Shown: one piece after another, positions 1 through 21,229 of the stretch
How positions within the stretch are numbered: position 1 is the first letter of the stretch
Layout of the letters: each line of letters opens with the position of its first letter
Source of the DNA: Euzebya sp.
GTDB lineage: Bacteria; Actinomycetota; Nitriliruptoria; Euzebyales; Euzebyaceae
Assembly: GCF_964222135.1 (NCBI RefSeq)
Contig: NZ_CAXQBR010000030.1
Coordinates: 29,460 to 53,459 of the forward strand
Reading direction: 5' to 3'
DNA: 24,000 bases
Program-made: the position numbers and the translations under genes
Notes under the pieces: model-generated
What the model saw: only the letters and a program-made list of their open reading frames with translations
What the model was told of the DNA's origin: nothing
Databases searched by the model: none

Positions 1-165
1 ATGGTTCCGCTCCACCTGGTCGGCGTCCTCGTGGATGGCGATCACGTGCGCCCGGCCGCGGCGCTCATGCACGGCGCGCAGTCCCGCCGGCAGCGCACCG
101 AACAGCACGATGACGTTCCGCCGTCCACGCAGCTCGCGCCACGGGTTCCACTGCTCCTCGTCCAC
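1..165 (-). CDS. Hypothetical protein, N-terminal part only (gene runs off the left edge), co-oriented downstream of the repressor
   Basis: Open minus-strand frame with no stop in the window, so it is absent from the ORF track. From GTG at 165-163 it reads VDEEQWNPWRELRGRRNVIVLFGALPAGLRAVHERRGRAHVIAIHEDADQVERNH... A purine-rich GAGGAGGGGGAAGG sits just upstream of the GTG. There is no other ATG/GTG/TTG in this frame between 166 and 288. GC3 does not separate it from the antisense ORF 1..288(+), so the strand call rests on the RBS, co-orientation with the repressor, and avoiding a 59-nt convergent overlap. Confidence 0.4.
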   Translation of the reverse strand, partial: MDEEQWNPWRELRGRRNVIVLFGALPAGLRAVHERRGRAHVIAIHEDADQVERNH

Positions 166-229
166 CGGGCCTTCCCCCTCCTCGATCGGCTCCCCACCGT
201 GCCATCGAGGTGTGACAATGCCGGTCCGC

Positions 230-886
230 CTACTCCCCCACGTCGGGATCGTCGGGATCCAGACCCTGCTGGCGCAGCATCTCGGTGATCATCGTTCGCG
301 CCAGGCGGCGGTTCGCCGGTGTCAAGCGTCCGAACGCGGTCATCTCTCCCGCAGCGGCGTCGTCCTCCGTGAACTCCCACACCGCGATCCAGACGGGCAG
401 CGGGCGGTCGGCAATCCGGAGGCGCTCCGGGTCGAACCCATAGGCGCTGGCAAGATCCTGGAGATCTCGGTCCCGTTCAGCAACGATGACGTCCGGCCAC
501 GTCCCAACCGGGTGCAACCCCTTGTCGTGGGCGAGGCGCATCATCTGCCCTGCTGCGTCGTTCTCCTTCACCAGGCGGTTCTTGCGGTCCGGAGGCGTCC
601 GCATGTCCACAAGCAGGTACTTGCCGTCGCCGAGATCGATCTCCAGATCGACTCCCGTCCATCCACGGCCCGGCCGCTGGATGTATCCGGCGGCCTCTGC
701 CAGCGTCCCCGGCTCGAGACCAAGGACCTGTTCGATCTGGCCGAGTCGCTTCCCGCGGGGCGCGTTGCGGTCGTTCTCCCAGTCGCTGACGGTCGACTGG
801 TGGACGCCGAGCTGCTCGGCCAGCCACCGCTGATCGCGGCTGCCTCGAGCCTCGCGAATCGCCTTCCCGATCGACATGTCTGACAC
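230..886 (-). CDS. XRE-family helix-turn-helix regulator, CI-like phage repressor candidate
   Basis: 218-aa ORF with an N-terminal Cro/C1-type HTH (IGKAIREARGSRDQRWLAEQLGVHQSTVSDWENDRNAP). It is divergent from a second HTH gene across a repeat-bearing spacer. The start is GTG 886 or ATG 877; there is no clear SD, so the mRNA may be leaderless. I cannot recognise an S24/LexA-type Ser-Lys signature in the C-terminal ~150 aa. Confidence 0.8.
   Translation of the reverse strand: MSDMSIGKAIREARGSRDQRWLAEQLGVHQSTVSDWENDRNAPRGKRLGQIEQVLGLEPGTLAEAAGYIQRPGRGWTGVDLEIDLGDGKYLLVDMRTPPDRKNRLVKENDAAGQMMRLAHDKGLHPVGTWPDVIVAERDRDLQDLASAYGFDPERLRIADRPLPVWIAVWEFTEDDAAAGEMTAFGRLTPANRRLARTMITEMLRQQGLDPDDPDVGE
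776..820. repeat. Left arm of a 45-bp perfect inverted repeat (inside the repressor HTH codons)
   Basis: CTCCCAGTCGCTGACGGTCGACTGGTGGACGCCGAGCTGCTCGGC is the exact reverse complement of 1185-1229. Identity ends at 775/1230 and at 821/1184. Confidence 0.95.
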
Positions 887-925
887 CAGACTGCGGCATG
901 ACGCTCCGAAACACCCACGCGGTGG

Positions 926-946
926 TATGGGTTTCGCGGTAGTCCC
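926..946 (+). promoter_or_regulatory. Candidate operator repeat R1
   Basis: TATGGGTTTCGCGGTAGTCCC is one of three ~21-bp direct repeats in the divergent intergenic region. Confidence 0.45.
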
Positions 947-955
947 CTGTAACGC

Positions 956-977
956 GTAGTTCCACGCGGGGAACTAC
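956..977. promoter_or_regulatory. Perfect palindrome GTAGTTCC-N6-GGAACTAC, a candidate dimer-binding operator
   Basis: 8-bp arms at 956-963 and 970-977. A related half-site, GTAGTCCC, lies at 940-947. The palindrome sits in the middle of the switch spacer. Confidence 0.4.
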
Positions 978-1004
978 CCGTTGGGACGTAGGCCCCGCCT
1001 GGTA

Positions 1005-1047
1005 TATGGGATTTGGGGTAGACACATATGGGTTTCTCGGTTTACCA
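1005..1047 (+). promoter_or_regulatory. Candidate operator repeats R2 (1005-1025) and R3 (1027-1047)
   Basis: R2 is TATGGGATTTGGGGTAGACAC and R3 is TATGGGTTTCTCGGTTTACCA. Their starts are 22 bp apart and they overlap the predicted rightward promoter. Confidence 0.45.
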
Positions 1048-1048
1048 T
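1019..1048 (+). promoter_or_regulatory. Candidate rightward (early lytic) promoter giving a leaderless Cro-like mRNA
   Basis: -35 TAGACA (1019-1024), an 18-nt spacer, then -10 TACCAT (1043-1048, fits TANNNT). This places the predicted TSS 7-8 nt downstream, at the ATG at 1056. There is no SD upstream of that ATG. Confidence 0.35.
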
Positions 1049-1055
1049 CGGCGGC

Positions 1056-1325
1056 ATGCCATGGGCGACCACCACCGAGCTGCCAGGAAGCGCCAGCGAG
1101 CGCACCCTGGCCCTCACCGTCGAGGAGCTGTGTGAGCAGCTGCCCGCCATCCGCGAGGTGCTGCACCTCCGCCAGGTCGACCTCGCCGAGCAGCTCGGCG
1201 TCCACCAGTCGACCGTCAGCGACTGGGAGCGCCGGGACTCGCCCGCGATTCCGTCGCGTCACAACGAGCGGCTCCTGCGTCGCTTCCTGGCTGAGGCATT
1301 CATGCGAGAGGCGGTGGCAGCGTGA
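1056..1325 (+). CDS. XRE-family HTH protein, Cro-like early regulator candidate
   Basis: In frame with track ORF 981..1325. ATG 1056 is chosen because 981-1055 carries the operators and promoter. HTH: LPAIREVLHLRQVDLAEQLGVHQSTVSDWERRD. It is small (89 aa) and divergent from the repressor. Confidence 0.75.
   Translation: MPWATTTELPGSASERTLALTVEELCEQLPAIREVLHLRQVDLAEQLGVHQSTVSDWERRDSPAIPSRHNERLLRRFLAEAFMREAVAA
1185..1229. repeat. Right arm of the 45-bp perfect inverted repeat (inside the Cro-like HTH codons)
   Basis: GCCGAGCAGCTCGGCGTCCACCAGTCGACCGTCAGCGACTGGGAG encodes AEQLGVHQSTVSDWE in frame. The same 15 aa are encoded by the left arm in the repressor. Confidence 0.95.
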
Positions 1326-1588
1326 CCGCTCCGGCCACCCCACTCGACGAGGCGGTGTCGCAGCTGTCGGCGGCGCTGCTCGAGCAGGCCCGCGCCCAGG
1401 CGGCCGCGAACCCGGTCGGTGACGACGACGTCCTCGTTGGGCTGAACCGGATCGCCCGGCACCTGTCGATGTCGGCGACCACCGTCACCCAGCTCGCCGA
1501 GTCCGGCGAGCTGCCGGCCCGGAAGGTCGGCACCCGCTGGCGCGCATCGAAGCGGGCCCTGTCGGTGTGGTTGGAGGGCGACCGGTGA
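1322..1588 (+). CDS. Excisionase-family / MerR-like HTH DNA-binding protein
   Basis: GTG start overlaps the upstream stop (GTGA). The C-terminal half, LVGLNRIARHLSMSATTVTQLAESGELPARKVGTRWRASKRALSVWLEG, matches the usual Xis/HTH_17 pattern (HTH followed by G-x-W-x-F/A...W). Confidence 0.65.
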   Translation: MTAPATPLDEAVSQLSAALLEQARAQAAANPVGDDDVLVGLNRIARHLSMSATTVTQLAESGELPARKVGTRWRASKRALSVWLEGDR

Positions 1589-1800
1589 CCCCCTCTCCCA
1601 CCGCCACCGCTGCGGCGCCGGTGACGCCGGACGTGACGCGCCGGTCGGACACGCCTCGTCGGCGGTTGGCCCGCAAGGTCGGCCCGGGCGAGGGCACCGC
1701 CGAGCTGCTCCCCATGGTCCACCCGCGCTGCCTCGGCGGCGGGCCGGGGCGTCGGGACGGCTTCTACGAGTCCGGGCCACCGCGGCCCTGGCCCGACTGA
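1585..1800 (+). CDS. Possible small Pro/Arg-rich hypothetical protein
   Basis: GTG at 1585 forms a GTGA overlap with the upstream stop. Third-position GC is very high across the frame. The sequence is low-complexity with no recognisable domain. Confidence 0.35.
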   Translation: MTPSPTATAAAPVTPDVTRRSDTPRRRLARKVGPGEGTAELLPMVHPRCLGGGPGRRDGFYESGPPRPWPD

Positions 1801-1944
1801 CCACCTGACCGCGACCCCCCGGCTCTCCCGCCGGGCCGGGGCGTCGCGATGGGTCGCTCGACGTACTCCCCCCCGCGTCGGGCGGCCCATCGGGACGCAC
1901 ACCCCGCGGACCACCGACCGCCTGCCAGACCCCATGGAGGACTG

Positions 1945-2319
1945 TTGAGCACCACCCGCACCCCCGACCGCATCGAGGCGCGGCCCGCTGAGGCCGTCCT
2001 CCACGAGATCGACGGCGGCCGTCTGCTGGACGACCTGTCGGAGATGATCCGCGACACCGCGGAGGCCTGCCAGACCTTCGAGAAGGTCGGCACCGTCACC
2101 CTCGTCGTCAAGTTCGCCCCGAACGACGACGGCGAGACCCTCATCGTCACCCCGGAACTGAAGGCCAAGGCCCCGCAGGCACCCCGCAAGTCGCGGACGT
2201 TCTTCATGGGCGACGACGGCCTCCGCCGTGACAACCCCGCCCAGGGCCGCCTCGACGGCTTCGACGAGGACGACCAGCCGCGCGCCGGCCGGATCGCCCC
2301 CAAGGACGGCCAGTCGTGA
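1945..2319 (+). CDS. Hypothetical early phage protein
   Basis: In frame with track ORF 1849..2319. TTG 1945 is preferred because GGAGGA (1936-1941) lies just upstream. It is coupled to the next gene by a GTGA overlap. No domain recognised. Confidence 0.6.
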   Translation: MSTTRTPDRIEARPAEAVLHEIDGGRLLDDLSEMIRDTAEACQTFEKVGTVTLVVKFAPNDDGETLIVTPELKAKAPQAPRKSRTFFMGDDGLRRDNPAQGRLDGFDEDDQPRAGRIAPKDGQS

Positions 2320-3158
2320 CCGCCGCCGAGCGCACCGAGAACGACGCCGTCGCCGAGCTGGCCGCCGCGGCGACCGACCCGATGCTCATCGTCGAGGAAG
2401 CTGTCCTGTCCCGGCTGGTCCCGGACGGGTTCCGGCTCGAGACCATCGACGGCGAGCACCTCGCCGACCACCCCCGCCGGGCCCGCGGCACCGCCGCCTT
2501 CGTCGACCCGGCCTCGTTCATCGCCTACATCGGGCGTCACCTCGACGACGACGCCACCACCCTGTGGGGCGACTGGCGCGACCTGTCCATGACCGCGGTG
2601 TTCAACGACGACGAGCCCCTCGACGGGGTCGACCACCCCGCCGGCTGGCGTGACCACCGGGCCGTCCTCAACCTCCGCACCACCGAGGAGTGGGACGACT
2701 GGACCGCCGCCGACCGGAAGCTGATGTCCCAGGTCGACTTCGCCTCGTTCATCGAGGACCACGTCGACGACATCACCGATCCGCCGGCCGCCGACATGCT
2801 CGAGCTGGCCCAGACCTTCACCGCCACGGAGAACGTCCAGTTCTCACAGGCCGTCCGGCTGTCCGACGGCTCCGGTGAGCTCCGCTACACGAGCGACATC
2901 GAGGCGGGGGCCGGCCGGTCCGGTGACCTGCACGTCCCCCAGACCTTCGAGCTGACCATCCGGCCGTTCGAGGGGGCCGAGCCCAAGACGGTCCGGGCGC
3001 GGCTGCGCTGGCGGATCCGCAACCAGCAGCTCGCCATCGGCTTCCAGCTGATCGGCCCCCGCCGCGTCCTCCAGGACGCCTTCGAGCAGGTCGCCGACGA
3101 GGTCCACACCGGAACCGGCCTGGACATCTACGCGGGCACCGCCCCCGCCGCCCGCTGA
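2316..3158 (+). CDS. DUF2303 / YfdQ-family protein
   Basis: 280 aa. The segments ASFIAYIGRH and QVDFASFIEDHVDDITDPPAADMLELAQTFTATENVQFSQAVRLSDGSGELRYTSD, plus the C-terminal RLRWRI block, match my recollection of the YfdQ (Rac prophage) family layout. Confidence 0.6.
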   Translation: MTAAERTENDAVAELAAAATDPMLIVEEAVLSRLVPDGFRLETIDGEHLADHPRRARGTAAFVDPASFIAYIGRHLDDDATTLWGDWRDLSMTAVFNDDEPLDGVDHPAGWRDHRAVLNLRTTEEWDDWTAADRKLMSQVDFASFIEDHVDDITDPPAADMLELAQTFTATENVQFSQAVRLSDGSGELRYTSDIEAGAGRSGDLHVPQTFELTIRPFEGAEPKTVRARLRWRIRNQQLAIGFQLIGPRRVLQDAFEQVADEVHTGTGLDIYAGTAPAAR

Positions 3159-3174
3159 CCTCCATGCCCGCGAC

Positions 3175-3204
3175 CCCAGCCCGTTCCGCCCCCCGTGGGC
3201 TGGG
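3175..3204 (+). terminator. GC-rich hairpin after the DUF2303 gene (weak terminator candidate)
   Basis: CCCAGCCC (3175-3182) pairs with GGGCTGGG (3197-3204) around a 14-nt loop. There is no U-tract. It lies in a 200-bp intergenic gap before a gene with a good RBS. Confidence 0.25.
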
Positions 3205-4530: not shown

Positions 4531-5267
4531 GCGGCTGGGCACCGACCGACGGCGAGGTCCTCGACGGCCGCATCGTCGCCCTCGACGTGGGCACGTCGAA
4601 GCAAGACGGCGAGCCGTACCCCCTCGTGGTCCTCCAGACCGACGACGGCGACGAGATCACCGTCCACGGTCACCACCGCGTGCTGAAGGAGGAGCTCGCC
4701 AAGCGCGCCCCCCGCGTCGGCGACCAGCTGCGCATCACCTACCTGGGCAAGCGGACCCCGGAGGGCGGTGGCCGCTCGTACGCCGCGTACCGGGTGGAGG
4801 GCGGCTCGAACCCGTTCACCTGGAACCTGTTCCGGGATCCCGACGACCAGCTGCCCGACGAGCACGCCACCGGCCAGCCCCTCGAGTCCGAGGGTGCGAC
4901 CTCGGACCGGCCCGCGGATCCCGTCCCGCAGGGCCAGCCCGCCCCCGACACCACTCCCGCCGGTGCGGGGGCGGGCACCCCCACCACCACGCCGCCCGAG
5001 CCGGCGGCCGGGCAGGTCGACACCCGCGACGTCATCGCCCCTGCCGACCAGGTCGCCATCCAGAAGCTGCTCGAGGCGGCCAAGCGCGTCTCGAAGATCT
5101 GGGAGGCGAAGCTGCGGCACCGCCTCAACCAGCGCGCCGCGGGCCCGTGGGAGACACATCTGACCGCGGAGGCCGGCCGTGAGGCGCTCTACTGGCTGAA
5201 GGCGGAGGTCGCCGAGGACGTCGCCGTCGACCGGGTCCTCGGTCACGTCGGGGGGCGAGCCGGATGA
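4527..5267 (+). CDS. Hypothetical protein: N-terminal beta-rich domain, Pro/Thr-rich linker, helical C-terminus
   Basis: ATG 4527 (ATGA overlap) is in frame with track ORF 4410..5267. The N-terminus, GEVLDGRIVALDVGTSKQDGEPYPLVVLQTDDGDEITVHGHHRVL, is OB-fold-like by eye only. There is no SSB acidic tail. Confidence 0.65.
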   Translation: MSGWAPTDGEVLDGRIVALDVGTSKQDGEPYPLVVLQTDDGDEITVHGHHRVLKEELAKRAPRVGDQLRITYLGKRTPEGGGRSYAAYRVEGGSNPFTWNLFRDPDDQLPDEHATGQPLESEGATSDRPADPVPQGQPAPDTTPAGAGAGTPTTTPPEPAAGQVDTRDVIAPADQVAIQKLLEAAKRVSKIWEAKLRHRLNQRAAGPWETHLTAEAGREALYWLKAEVAEDVAVDRVLGHVGGRAG

Positions 5268-5797
5268 CCGCCACGTCGATCCCTGACCGTCTCGTGGCCG
5301 AGTGCATCGAGGCCGGCCAGCATCTGCGCGCGACCCGCCGGTTCGCCGGTGAGCCGTTCGACCGCTGCCACGGCTGCGGCCAGCCGGTCATCGTCGAACC
5401 CGCGCCGGGCTGGCAGGACCGCGGGCTGTGCACGACCGGTGACCCGGACATGTTCTACCCGGAGGCCGGCCAGCAGGAGCTCGCCGACCGCGCCGTCGAC
5501 ATCTGCGCCGGCTGCCCCGTCATCGTCGAGTGCGGCGCCTACGCGCTCCTCCACGAGCCCGTCGGCGTCTGGGGTGGCATGACCGCCCCCGAACGGCGTG
5601 CCATCCGCCGGCAGCTCGGCATCACCGTCGACGTGCCCGGCGGCCTCCGCGCCTCCCGGCTCGCCCGCAACGGCCGGGTCCGCCAGCTCGCCGCCGCCGG
5701 CTGGACCGCCGGGGAGATCGCCGCCGAGCTCGACATCAGCGACCGGGAGGTTCACCGGATCCTCCGCGACCGTGACGACCAGGCGGACGCGGCGTGA
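5264..5797 (+). CDS. WhiB-like (Wbl) Fe-S regulator fused to a C-terminal HTH
   Basis: Cys pattern C55...CAGCPVIVEC (C-x2-C-x5-C) followed by GVWGGMTAPERRAIRR is the Wbl signature. The C-terminus, RQLAAAGWTAGEIAAELDISDREVHRILRDR, looks like a sigma70-region-4/LuxR-type HTH. ATGA overlap with the upstream gene. Confidence 0.8.
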   Translation: MTATSIPDRLVAECIEAGQHLRATRRFAGEPFDRCHGCGQPVIVEPAPGWQDRGLCTTGDPDMFYPEAGQQELADRAVDICAGCPVIVECGAYALLHEPVGVWGGMTAPERRAIRRQLGITVDVPGGLRASRLARNGRVRQLAAAGWTAGEIAAELDISDREVHRILRDRDDQADAA

Positions 5798-7752: not shown

Positions 7753-8011
7753 AGGCGATCCGATCCGGCTGCTGCCGCAGCACTTCGGGCCCGAGGGCAC
7801 GCCCAAGCGTCCGTTCGACACCAAGGACGACGCCCGTCAGTGGCTCCACGACCACGGCCTGAAGGCGGCCATCTACCGGTGCACCGTCTGCCCGGCGGTC
7901 CACATCGCCGGCGTCCACAAGGGCCACACGCCCTCTCCCGCCGAACGACAGGCCGCACACGACGCCGGGAAGGCCGCATGGCCCGCCGACGTCGAGGGGG
8001 CGGGCGCCTGA
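7745..8011 (+). CDS. Hypothetical protein
   Basis: GTG start overlaps the upstream stop. 88 aa. Its stop overlaps the next ATG (TGATG). Confidence 0.6.
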   Translation: MREGDPIRLLPQHFGPEGTPKRPFDTKDDARQWLHDHGLKAAIYRCTVCPAVHIAGVHKGHTPSPAERQAAHDAGKAAWPADVEGAGA

Positions 8012-8409
8012 TGTGGCAGATCGTCCTCCCCGAGGTGGTCGTGGACTACCAGGTCCTCAACCTGAACGCGCGCAAGCACTGGTCTGACCGCGCCCCAGCC
8101 GTCGCGCTCGTCCGCACGATGGTGAAGGCCGAAGCACTCCAGCTGCGGATCGGCCGGCACGACCACATCACCGCCGTCCTCACCTTCCACCCGCCCACGA
8201 GCACGAGGAGGGACCGGATCAACTGCGCGCTCGTGCACAAGGCCGCGATCGACGGGCTCGTCGACGCTCACGTCATCCCCGACGACACCCCCGACCACCT
8301 GACCGACCTCATGCCCCGCATCGGCGCCAAGCGCAAGCCGGCCGAGTGGATCCTCACCATCCACGCCGGCTACCCGACCGCCCAGACGCTCTACGGGATG
8401 ACCAGCTGA
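8011..8409 (+). CDS. rusA: RusA-family Holliday-junction resolvase
   Basis: ATG 8011 is in frame with track ORF 7840..8409. 132 aa. RRDRINCALVHKAAIDGLVDAHVIPDDTPDHL resembles the RusA D-x-(D)N...K...D-x-L...DD core. Size and position before the replication genes fit. Confidence 0.6.
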   Translation: MWQIVLPEVVVDYQVLNLNARKHWSDRAPAVALVRTMVKAEALQLRIGRHDHITAVLTFHPPTSTRRDRINCALVHKAAIDGLVDAHVIPDDTPDHLTDLMPRIGAKRKPAEWILTIHAGYPTAQTLYGMTS

Positions 8410-18403: not shown

Positions 18404-19671
18404 ACCGCCACCACGCGATGTACGCCGCGATCGATCGGCGCACGATCCTCAGCCGACTCGACCAGATCGCCGGCACCGGACGCTGGTACACGATCCAGAA
18501 CGCGGCCGGCGACAACGGCCGGGCGACGATCCGGATCTTCGACGAGATCGGCTACTGGGGCGTCACCGAGGAGGACTTCGCCCGCGACCTCGAGCAGATC
18601 GACGCCGACGAGATCGAGGTGCAGATCTCCTCGCCCGGCGGTGAGGTGTACGCCGGCATCGCGATCTACAACCAGCTGCGCGCCCACCGGGCCCGCATCA
18701 TCACCCGCGTCGACGGGATGGCCGCCTCCGCGGCGTCGGTGATCGTCCAGGCTGGCGACGAGCGGCTGATGATGTCGTCGGCGCAGATGATGATCCACGA
18801 GGCCTGGGGCCTCTGTGTGGGTCCGGCCGGCGACATGCGTGACTTCGCGGAGCTGCTCGACAAGCAGTCCGACATCATCGCCGGCATCTACGCGGCCCGG
18901 TCGGGCCGTGACGTCGCGGAGTTCCGCGACCTGATGCGCACCGACACGTACCTGACCGACACCGAGGCCGTCGACCTGGGGTTGGCCGACTCGGTCTACG
19001 AGCCGCCCAGCAAGGCCGTCGCGGCCGCCACCGCGGCCGCGGCCGCGCAGGCACGCCGCCAGATGGCGAACGCCACCCGGACCCCCCTGAACACCCGCAC
19101 GACCGGCCCGCAGGGCCAGGAGGACAGCATGGATCTGAACGAGATCCGCGAGGCCCTGGGCCTGGCGGCCGACACCCCCGACGACGAGGTCATCGCCCTC
19201 GCGGCCGAGCGGCTCGCCACCCCGCCCACCGGCGACCCGAAGCCGACCGACGATGGCGATCCGGTGGCACAGGTTCCCCCGCCGCCCTCCGGCCCCCCTG
19301 CGCCTGCCGAGCCGACCCTGCCGGACGGCCTGATCGCGGTCTCCGCCGCCCGGTTCCAGGAGATGCAGGAGCAGATCGCCGAGCTGGCCGCCGACAACGA
19401 GAAGCGGTCCGTCGCGGAGGCCAAGTCCCACCGGGACGGGCTGATCAAGGCTGCGCTGCGCGACGGGAAGATCGCCAAGTCCGAAGAGAAGAGCTGGCGG
19501 GACCAGCTCGACGAGGCGCCCGAGGCCGTCGAGGCGCTCCTCAACTCGATGCCGGCTAGCCGCCGCGTCCCCGTCGGCGAGCTCGGCTACGCCGGCGGCG
19601 ACGCCGACACGGTGACCGACGAGGACGCCAAGTACGCCAGCTTGACCGCCGACGCCCCCACGTACAGCTGA
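18400..19671 (+). CDS. ClpP-type (S14) prohead protease fused to a scaffold domain
   Basis: GTG 18400 (GTGA overlap with the portal stop; ATG 18418 is an alternative) is in frame with track ORF 18067..19671. ISSPGGEVYAGIAIYN...VDGMAASAASVIVQAG...MMIHEAWG carries the ClpP Ser and His motifs. The C-terminal 180 aa are helical and scaffold-like (GLIKAALRDGKIAKSEEKSWRDQL). Confidence 0.85.
   Translation: MNRHHAMYAAIDRRTILSRLDQIAGTGRWYTIQNAAGDNGRATIRIFDEIGYWGVTEEDFARDLEQIDADEIEVQISSPGGEVYAGIAIYNQLRAHRARIITRVDGMAASAASVIVQAGDERLMMSSAQMMIHEAWGLCVGPAGDMRDFAELLDKQSDIIAGIYAARSGRDVAEFRDLMRTDTYLTDTEAVDLGLADSVYEPPSKAVAAATAAAAAQARRQMANATRTPLNTRTTGPQGQEDSMDLNEIREALGLAADTPDDEVIALAAERLATPPTGDPKPTDDGDPVAQVPPPPSGPPAPAEPTLPDGLIAVSAARFQEMQEQIAELAADNEKRSVAEAKSHRDGLIKAALRDGKIAKSEEKSWRDQLDEAPEAVEALLNSMPASRRVPVGELGYAGGDADTVTDEDAKYASLTADAPTYS
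19129..19671 (+). CDS. Probable nested in-frame scaffold protein (internal start within the protease gene)
   Basis: AGGAGGA (19118-19124) lies 4 nt upstream of the in-frame ATG 19129 (MDLNEIREALGL...). The arrangement is analogous to lambda C/Nu3 and Mu I/Z. Confidence 0.5.
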   Translation: MDLNEIREALGLAADTPDDEVIALAAERLATPPTGDPKPTDDGDPVAQVPPPPSGPPAPAEPTLPDGLIAVSAARFQEMQEQIAELAADNEKRSVAEAKSHRDGLIKAALRDGKIAKSEEKSWRDQLDEAPEAVEALLNSMPASRRVPVGELGYAGGDADTVTDEDAKYASLTADAPTYS

Positions 19672-20188: not shown

Positions 20189-21229
20189 ATGAAGAACCTG
20201 GCCGTGCGTGCCCTGACGCGCCTGCTCGCCCCCTTCCTGATGCCGGTCGCGTTGGCCCGCGGCCTGGTGTCGCTGCTCAACCTGGACGTCACCTACCCGC
20301 CGCGTCCCGGCACCATCGACGAGGACGGGGTCGCGCACATCTCGGAGTTCCTGAAGGACCCCGCGATGATCGCCCGCCGCATGCGCGACATCGCCGACAA
20401 GATCTTCGTCGGAGACAAGATCCTCCGCGGCCGCGCCTCCACCGCGTCCGGGACGGTGTCCTACGGCCAGTCCGAGAGCATCTACGCCGACGCCGCCCCC
20501 GAGGTCGTCGCCCCAGGCGGCGTCTACCCGACCACCGTGATCGCCGCCGTCGCGCGGATCTGGGAGTCGATGAAGAAGGTCGGCCTCGCCACCGAGATCA
20601 CCCTCGAGTCCGTCGAGGAGCTCCGCTGGGACCCCGTCGACCGGGCCATCCGGAAGCTGAAGAACCGGCAGATCCAGGCGTTCGACCTGCGGGTCATCGC
20701 CAAGATCGTCGCCGCGTTCCCGCTCATCCCCACCGTCACCGGGTCCGACTGGGGGTCGGCGACGACCGCCGCGCCGGTGAAGCACGTCCTCCAGGCCATC
20801 GCCGACATCCGCGACCTGCAGGAGGGCTACGACCCCGACACGCTGCTGCTCGACCACGACAAGTTCGTCGAGTGGGTCGCCAACCCGCAGATCATGGCGC
20901 TGCTCGCCCGCTACGCCGGCGGCGACGCCGACTTCACCGTGTCGGAGAACAGCATCTTCCTGCCCGGCGCGAACCTGACGATCCTGTCCCAGCCGACCGG
21001 GACCGGCATCACCGACCCGCTGGTGTTCGACTCCACCCAGCTCGGCTCCATCGTCCGCAAGGAGTCCGACCCCGCCGAGGACGACGGCGTGAAGATCTCC
21101 TCGAAGTACTTCGACGAGAACGAGGTCTCCCCGGGCGGCAAGTCCGAGGCATGGCGGCTCACCACCAAGCGTGAGCGCGAGCCGATCGTGCAGGAGCCGC
21201 AGGCCGCCGTCCGGATCACGGGCACCTGA
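20189..21229 (+). CDS. Major capsid protein
   Basis: 346 aa, following the scaffold and decoration genes. RBS GAGAGGA. Size and position match lambda gpE-like / HK97-fold capsid genes; the fold is not verifiable by eye. Confidence 0.75.
   Translation: MKNLAVRALTRLLAPFLMPVALARGLVSLLNLDVTYPPRPGTIDEDGVAHISEFLKDPAMIARRMRDIADKIFVGDKILRGRASTASGTVSYGQSESIYADAAPEVVAPGGVYPTTVIAAVARIWESMKKVGLATEITLESVEELRWDPVDRAIRKLKNRQIQAFDLRVIAKIVAAFPLIPTVTGSDWGSATTAAPVKHVLQAIADIRDLQEGYDPDTLLLDHDKFVEWVANPQIMALLARYAGGDADFTVSENSIFLPGANLTILSQPTGTGITDPLVFDSTQLGSIVRKESDPAEDDGVKISSKYFDENEVSPGGKSEAWRLTTKREREPIVQEPQAAVRITGT

Follow-up and report, generated by a model that had tools for sequence, protein, structure and literature searches.

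Why should a phage repressor and its divergently transcribed antagonist, two genes that have otherwise diverged, share 45 consecutive nucleotides (nt) without a single difference? The question is raised by a locus near the left end of the window, by which we mean the whole 24-kb stretch of DNA analysed here, which was taken from a RefSeq contig of 99.5 kb from Euzebya sp. Here a Euzebya prophage, which carries an integrase and lies next to a tRNA gene, has its lysis-lysogeny switch, a divergent pair of the repressor/Cro type whose two regulators carry paralogous XRE helix-turn-helix domains. We argue below that the 45-base-pair (bp) identity is a recent templated copy between the two genes (gene conversion in the broad sense), most probably from the repressor gene into the Cro-like gene, and we put the probability of this reading at roughly three in four. 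The parts of the locus on which the argument turns are as follows.

230..886, minus strand: repressor gene, 218 amino acids (aa) from GTG 886, or 215 aa from ATG 877 as in RefSeq WP_370325259.1
1056..1325, plus strand: Cro-like gene, 89 aa, WP_370325260.1, first gene of the rightward early operon
776..820, minus strand: left arm of the inverted repeat, repressor residues A20-E34 (numbered from ATG 877), AEQLGVHQSTVSDWE
1185..1229, plus strand: right arm of the inverted repeat, Cro-like residues A44-E58, the same 15 codons as the left arm
821..1184, no strand: enclosed segment of 364 bp, comprising the entire control region between the genes and, on either side of it, an N-terminal coding part with its start codon

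Positions 776-820 and 1185-1229 are exact reverse complements (45/45 nt), the identity ending at 775/1230 on one side and at 821/1184 on the other. If one mismatch is allowed, a repeat-finding tool lengthens the pair of arms to 48 nt; the mismatch falls at the third position of a Leu codon that both genes have (CTG versus CTC). The arms are read in frame, in one codon phase, and their 15/15 identical codons encode AEQLGVHQSTVSDWE; among them are two different Ser codons, TCG and AGC, each found in both arms. The starts inside 821-1184 are ATG 877 or GTG 886 for the repressor and ATG 1056 for the Cro-like protein. An earlier note on this DNA had described a perfect inverted repeat with these ends, in frame in both genes and identical at all 15 synonymous positions, a CTG/CTC difference in the Leu just upstream, and the enclosure of the 364-bp switch by the arms. 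The base-level and codon comparisons agree with it on all of these, and both starts, the promoter-like site, the direct repeats and the palindrome of the control region indeed lie in 821-1184. Its impression that the rest of the two proteins looks unrelated was too strong. The block is sharply bounded, 45/45 nt in the patch against 8/24 and 5/24 nt in its flanks, and to that extent the flanks have diverged as described; however, both proteins belong to Pfam HTH_3, and BLASTP aligns them with 24/35 residues identical, including AIRE and a conserved Gln upstream of the patch. Each arm also contains a 15-nt palindrome, GCCGAGCWGCTCGGC (806-820 and 1185-1199), formed by the codons for AEQLG. It is probably incidental, because it is not conserved in the repressor or Cro genes of the relatives described below.

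The repeat is not a chance occurrence. The expected number of 45-nt perfect inverted repeats in 24 kb is about 4 × 10-16, and the next longest one in the window has 18 nt. When the 67 differences were permuted over the 138-nt in-register alignment, none of 200,000 shuffles gave a run of 45 and the maximum was 22. Chance as the origin of the repeat is ruled out by these two results. At the level of identity found between the corresponding segments of a relative, the expectation for a match of 45/45 is (31/45)^45 = 5 × 10-8. Taking the amino acids as given, the probability of 15/15 identical codons is 0.0016 under the codon usage of the window, with codon frequencies from its 13 confident genes. 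Since the G+C content at third codon positions (GC3) of the phage genes is about 0.9, the synonymous identity is significant, but less extreme than it sounds. The core of AEQLGVHQSTVSDWE is not a common consensus either, as neither IMG/VR nor 596 Gb of species-representative genome contigs contained a match to a degenerate DNA pattern for GVHQ(S/T)TVSDWE.

The shared segment coincides with the part of the proteins that is expected to read DNA. The Pfam helix-turn-helix (HTH) family HTH_3 (PF01381) matches the repressor with 41.7 bits and the Cro-like protein with 28.8 bits (cutoff 23). The repressor consists of an N-terminal XRE/HTH_3 domain followed by a C-terminal alpha/beta domain of no assigned family, and its PHROG matches are to repressor and regulator families. 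In its AlphaFold2 model the HTH has block-mean confidence values (predicted local distance difference test, pLDDT) of 81-92, with helices at residues 3-11, 16-23, 27-34, 42-52 and 58-62. The model has the five-helix fold with helix 3 as the recognition helix, and the best match of the DNA-binding domain in the PDB by Foldseek is the P22 c2 repressor (template modelling score, TM, 0.84; root-mean-square deviation 1.5). Because helices 2 and 3 of the model span residues 16-23 and 27-34, the patch A20-E34 takes in the last part of helix 2, the turn and helix 3 in full, in line with the earlier assignment of the repeat to the turn and recognition helix. A single-sequence model of the Cro-like protein has low confidence (pLDDT 66).

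Few relatives of the switch were found. No match to window 1-2400 was found by megablast among 50,697 phage records, scans of genome and viral contigs with repressor peptides gave no close relatives, word-indexed protein searches with the repressor and Cro returned only the query proteins themselves, and tblastn against isolated phages gave only distant HTH matches, in Pseudomonas and Salisaeta phages. An exhaustive HMMER search identified one full-length relative of the repressor (P0003, 44% identity) and two shorter ones (P0004 and P0005), to which a profile search added P0152, and these led to contigs of related prophages. Contigs L003 and L004 (carrying P0003) and L005 (carrying P0004) exhibit the same layout as the window: an integrase by a tRNA gene, the repressor, a divergent HTH_3 Cro of 67-68 aa, and an HTH_17 gene. 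The Cro of the window is 51% and 58% identical to those of L003 and L005, respectively. A second assembly (GCA_041256365.1) holds a 6.8-kb contig, L001, which is identical to window 1-1898 except for a single-nucleotide polymorphism (SNP) at 765 and has both arms. This SNP is non-synonymous, giving repressor N38 in the window and T38 in L001, four codons past the patch and within the HTH domain; the relatives have Asn. The patches of repressor and Cro compare within each switch as follows.

Window repressor against window Cro: 45/45 nt, 15/15 aa, 15/15 codons shared where the amino acids match
L003 repressor against L003 Cro: 31/45 nt, 10/15 aa, 5/10 codons shared where the amino acids match
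L005 repressor against L005 Cro: 30/45 nt, 9/15 aa, 7/9 codons shared where the amino acids match

As a control we collected loci with the motif Q[STA]T[VI]S[DQA]WE in an encoded XRE protein, about 60 in all, from viral and metagenomic sequences. About 14 of these, all unrelated to the window, have a divergent partner HTH at a distance of 290-410 bp; their patch identity is 22-32/45 nt, and no perfect inverted repeat of at least 16 nt runs through the HTH in any of the controls. Since relatives and controls alike lack the identity, the 45-nt match is a derived event in this lineage and not a property of the switch family. The geometry recurs among the control loci, the HTH segments lying 290-410 bp apart in about 14 unrelated cases (L009-L050, for instance L010, L041, L014, L011 and L030), which suggests that the divergent XRE-pair layout is widespread and stereotyped.

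Which gene was the template can be judged from the relationships of the patch and of its surroundings. Outside the patch the Cro-like gene of the window resembles its orthologues: its 5' flank is closest to that of the L005 Cro (17/24 nt), and its C-terminal ..PSR.NER.LR..LAEA is conserved with the Cro orthologues. Its patch is closest to that of the window repressor (45/45), followed by the L003 repressor (38/45, with 11/12 shared codons) and the repressor of a further locus, L007 (36/45); the two Cro orthologues match at 35/45 and 27/45. The states Leu4, Val11 and Asp13 of the patch, and AGC for Ser12, are those of the window and L003 repressors, and L007 has Val11 and AGC. Both Cro orthologues have Val4, Ile11, Ala13 and TCG instead. 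The distant repressor-family proteins P0005, P0007 and P0008 carry ..VSDWE or VSQWE. Thus, the patch groups with repressors and the flanks group with Cro orthologues, the comparison being with two relatives only. This disagreement points to templated copying in one direction only, the repressor gene most probably being the source and the Cro gene the recipient. The explanation favoured in the earlier note, recent gene conversion or patch recombination, is strengthened by the patches of the relatives (31/45 and 30/45), by those of the controls (22-32/45) and by the repressor-type patch between Cro-type flanks. For the direction we estimate odds of roughly three to one in favour of repressor to Cro; they are not higher because only two Cro orthologues are known, and the estimate presumes that a LGVHQSTVSDWE-type sequence with AGC or GAC codons is not native to Cro orthologues. 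Relative to the L003 Cro, the closer of the Cro orthologues, the copy altered five residues, including Ser9 and Asp13, both of which lie in helix 3. Ser9 (position 2 of helix 3) is Thr or Ala in every relative seen. The pattern of Ser9 and Asp13 would fit a change of repressor specificity that may have been handed on to Cro.

The course of events that we envisage is simple. A segment of 45-47 nt, comprising the end of helix 2, the turn and the recognition helix, would have been overwritten in one gene with the other gene as template. The junctions would fall in microhomologies common to all orthologues, ..CTS GCC on one side and TGG GAG on the other. Our preferred guess, which is inference only, is a microhomology-bounded template switch between the inverted segments. 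The perfect inverted repeat would accordingly be the footprint of copying and not a dedicated recombination site. A better known case of copying between inverted genes is that of tufA and tufB in Salmonella, where non-reciprocal intrachromosomal copying keeps the inverted copies identical in contiguous tracts and a crossover outcome would be an inversion; in the model proposed for it, RecA-type conversion aborts without flanking identity (PMC5485169). The tuf genes (about 1.2 kb) are near-identical throughout and have flanking homology, whereas the tract described here covers 45-47 nt in otherwise non-homologous genes. A microhomology-bounded template switch is more plausible here than classical RecA conversion.

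Several points weigh against this account. Template switching, as the copying mechanism, is a conjecture. Classical RecA conversion fits poorly, because its substrate would have been a poor one: the arms lie between non-homologous flanks (8/24 and 5/24 nt), and the identity of the patches prior to the copy was probably no more than about 68%. The direction is read from three residues and one codon in two related switches. Operator binding by the repressor and Cro is a prediction, and the name "Cro" for the 89-aa protein has synteny as its sole basis. Finally, the operator-like repeats of the control region are direct and not palindromic, although they would have to be read by a shared dimeric HTH head.

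Among the alternatives, the one that survives best keeps the copying and changes its source: the patch would have been copied from Cro to the repressor, or both patches would have come from a third phage. It profits from the small number of known Cro orthologues (two) and from the first patch residues (AE-), which are also found in the L003 Cro. We nevertheless regard it as unlikely, since positions 4, 11 and 13 and the AGC Ser codon are all repressor-type, the patch has more in common with the repressors of L003 (38/45) and L007 (36/45) than with either Cro orthologue (35/45 and 27/45), and ..VSDWE or VSQWE recurs in the distant repressor-family proteins P0005, P0007 and P0008.

Far less probable is that the arms form a working inverton, in which RecA or a recombinase of phage or host would flip the 364-bp cassette and swap promoters and N-termini. 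We give the same low probability to a recombinase-independent inverton, in which homologous exchange between the arms would give CroN-RepC and RepN-CroC chimeras with the same reading head. If true, the flip would rewire the promoter of the lytic operon and lay a heritable DNA-level layer over the transcriptional switch. The possibility was raised in the earlier note together with the prediction that both open reading frames (ORFs) would stay open. The prediction is correct: in-silico inversion of 821-1184 leaves a 239-aa CroN-RepC ORF and a 65-aa RepN-CroC ORF, both open, and the 65-aa product is near the size of the 67-68-aa Cro orthologues. The arms do bracket a promoter-bearing segment, and a past templated exchange would show that physical interaction of the arms is possible. 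Their 45 bp of uninterrupted identity come close to the shortest stretch on which RecA of E. coli is known to recombine, and the window encodes a RusA-like Holliday junction resolvase (7840-8409). For the flip itself, however, the assembled copies give no evidence. The window, L001, L003/L004 and L005 are all canonical, with RepN joined to RepC and CroN to CroC, and both contigs assemble unbroken through the arms. No invertase-type recombinase was found, the sole recombinase being the prophage integrase, two genes off; a phage single-strand annealing recombinase was also looked for in the window and none was recognised, with the RusA-like resolvase as the only find. The switch does not depend on the perfect repeat, which its counterparts in the relatives lack, and after an inversion the lytic operon would fall behind the repressor promoter, with no obvious benefit. 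Intragenic invertons are able to recode proteins (PMC10028968). The locus resembles invertons in having inverted repeats around a promoter-containing segment, and differs from them in its long coding arms, the lack of a dedicated invertase and of a second orientation in the available copies, and the absence of the repeat in relatives.

We give still less credence to an origin without any DNA transfer, in which purifying or convergent selection on the amino acids, combined with an extreme GC3 codon bias, would have produced the identity. It is true that most of the 15 codons are dominant (with GC3 about 0.9, the probability of the same codon is at least 0.86 for the seven E, Q, H and D codons and 1.0 for W) and that XRE HTH segments are generally similar, as the 22-32/45 nt of the control pairs indicate. 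But a match of 15/15 codons has a probability of only 0.0016 even with the amino acids fixed, and the Ser codons TCG and AGC match between the arms although the commonest Ser codon is TCC. The relatives, under the same constraints, share 9-10/15 aa and 5/10 to 7/9 codons. The identity also ends abruptly, beside the CTG/CTC difference, and no independent phages were seen that combine 15/15 aa identity with scattered synonymous differences.

No better placed is selection on the nucleic acid itself, by which the identity would be kept for the sake of an operator or other protein site in each arm or of a 45-bp RNA duplex in a leftward read-through transcript. The palindrome GCCGAGCWGCTCGGC in each arm is of the kind that the first version calls for, and a transcript across both arms would form a perfect 45-bp stem. 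Neither the palindrome nor the repeat is conserved in L003 and L005, however, no leftward promoter-like site lies to the right of the arms in window 1-3200, and the operator-like motifs of the intergenic region are absent from the arms. A known RNA family was considered and rejected, there being no Rfam match. Selection on the DNA itself, the other explanation offered in the earlier note, loses ground on conservation. The least probable of all is an assembly or error-correction artefact of metagenome-assembled genomes: the source assembly is uncultured-type and L001 has a clear artefact elsewhere (a 103-nt fold-back at its end), but two assemblies, told apart by a SNP at a distance of 11 nt from the arm, both have the two arms intact, segments of 45 nt that lie 364 bp apart are not homogenised by assemblers when their coverage is equal, and both ORFs stay in frame with orthologous flanks.

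Returning to a templated copy as the preferred origin, we consider what it would mean for the switch. The control region between the two genes exhibits the following features.

1019..1048, plus strand: rightward promoter-like site TAGACA-18-TACCAT, the only promoter-like site in 1-3200 (shuffle mean 0.1)
926..942, plus strand: operator-like direct repeat 1, TATGGGTTTCGCGGTAG, on the repressor-proximal side
1005..1021, plus strand: operator-like direct repeat 2, overlapping the -35 hexamer
1027..1043, plus strand: operator-like direct repeat 3, in the promoter spacer, 22 bp after repeat 2
951..982, no strand: central near-palindrome with the core GTAGTTCC-N6-GGAACTAC; GTAGTT/AACTAC elements occupy the same central position in L003 and L005

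Only 7 nt separate the end of the promoter-like site from the cro ATG, which makes a leaderless cro mRNA probable. All copies of the three direct repeats (15-17 nt) in the 24 kb are confined to the 178-bp intergenic region, and two of them overlap the promoter-like site; the repeat count alone is weakly significant, being reached by 3/100 shuffles. No repressor promoter was detected by the promoter scan of window 1-3200. The scan gave no match in L003 and L005, where a geometry judged by eye (-35, 17 nt, -10, 6-7 nt, ATG) is weak and was not used. The C repressor of phage P2, likewise an HTH protein, recognises direct repeats instead of inverted ones (PMC2995052). It is a possible analogue for the three direct repeats, the likeness being in repeat type only.

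After the copy, both proteins would present an identical reading head to the putative operators of this region. That the repressor and Cro would read the same base pairs, much as the earlier note proposed, is a plausible inference from the identity of helix 3 and the end of helix 2, by analogy with 434 and P22. Shared operators are textbook behaviour of CI/Cro pairs. If the reading head is the same, any operator preference must stem from helix 1, from the regions after helix 3 or from oligomerisation via the C-terminal domain of the repressor. The locus may thus be regarded as a natural experiment on the share of CI-versus-Cro operator preference that lies outside the recognition helix. Its wider interest concerns the evolution of immunity. 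A change of immunity specificity requires the repressor, Cro and several operators to shift together, and the route has long been an open problem. One short templated copy can carry the whole recognition helix into the antagonist regulator, with the derived Ser included, so that the two proteins stay matched. If general, such copying would offer a simple way for the protein side of a genetic switch to evolve in concert. In practical terms the impact is modest, as one lineage and a familiar switch are involved.

The unusual part of the locus is the nucleotide-identical reading-head patch, the basic switch being of a familiar kind. The lambdoid CI/Cro switches (c2/cro; 434, P22) likewise have a divergent repressor and a small Cro gene around a short intergenic region; theirs contains repeated operators that overlap the promoters, to which the operator-like repeats may correspond here, and it is the c2 DNA-binding domain of P22 that comes closest in structure to that of the repressor described here. 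The repressor and Cro of phage 434 are homologous, have very similar recognition helices and read the same operators. In contrast to the lambdoid switches, the recognition segments are here nucleotide-identical over 45 nt in genes that are otherwise diverged, the operator-like repeats are direct rather than palindromic, a LexA/S24-type cleavage domain is missing, and the cro mRNA is probably leaderless. We found no earlier report of a nucleotide-identical HTH patch in repressor and Cro, or of such an invertible lysis-lysogeny cassette, in a literature search of incomplete coverage.

The two regulators have some further peculiarities. The repressor exhibits no Peptidase_S24 domain and no Pfam match beyond the HTH, and its C-terminal alpha/beta domain gave no confident match in the PDB. 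Not all such switches need the RecA-stimulated S24 self-cleavage domain found in lambda CI. Modular construction is seen in the repressor family: P0004 (126 aa) and P0005 are without the central alpha/beta domain (approximately residues 70-170, in the 230-706 part of the window) and keep the HTH together with a conserved tail, AFGxLTPxNxxxVxxxxTxLLRAQGLDPxxPxV. For the central domain of the family there was neither a Pfam match nor a confident match in the PDB. The Cro-like protein of the window has an N-terminal extension of 21 residues (1056-1118), absent from the 67-68-aa orthologues of L003 and L005, and no further in-frame start codon follows ATG 1056 in its reading frame.

By synteny and domain content the locus belongs to the CI/Cro type of switch: a divergent repressor and a small regulator lie next to the integration genes and precede the early lytic ones. 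The left flank of the prophage was read from L001, where a tyrosine integrase (372 aa, Phage_integrase) adjoins a tRNA-Met gene and a gene of 159 aa lies to the left of the repressor. Two genes on the right side of the switch were mapped as follows.

1322..1588, plus strand: HTH_17 excisionase-like gene directly after cro, its synteny kept in L003 and L005
7840-8409: RusA-like Holliday junction resolvase

Next to the right in the window are a PHROG_204 protein and a DUF2303 protein, and further right a DnaD-like loader, a DnaB helicase, a SNF2 helicase, a DNA methylase, the large terminase and the portal. An ORF at 5264-5797 encodes a WhiB-like domain, and the C-terminal part that comes after it weakly resembles late transcriptional activator and HNH families.

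Comparison with the relatives also reveals differences around the switch. Downstream of cro/xis, L003 (2231-4047) and L005 (2176-3989) carry a recombination module of RecT and YqaJ, the counterpart of which in the window (1849-3158) consists of the PHROG_204 and DUF2303 proteins, a mosaic replacement of an early-region module. The neighbours of the attachment sites differ as well. The window-type prophage lies by tRNA-Met (L001 3164-3239), and those of L003 (8748-8823) and L005 (8483-8558) lie by tRNA-Asn near isocitrate dehydrogenase, so that related phages use different tRNA attachment sites.

Two further structures were noted in the DNA itself. A strong imperfect hairpin at 1846-1892 follows the ORF at 1567-1800 (DNA fold -27.8 kcal/mol, z = -4.1). 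The end of L001 (6521-6774) carries a 103-nt fold-back centred on this hairpin, which looks like an assembly artefact at a real stem-loop; the fold-back accounts for the divergence of L001 from the window at 1899-1996. No direct repeat in the window is longer than a perfect one of 23 nt in the structural-gene region (19586-19608 and 20910-20932), with 1324 nt from start to start.

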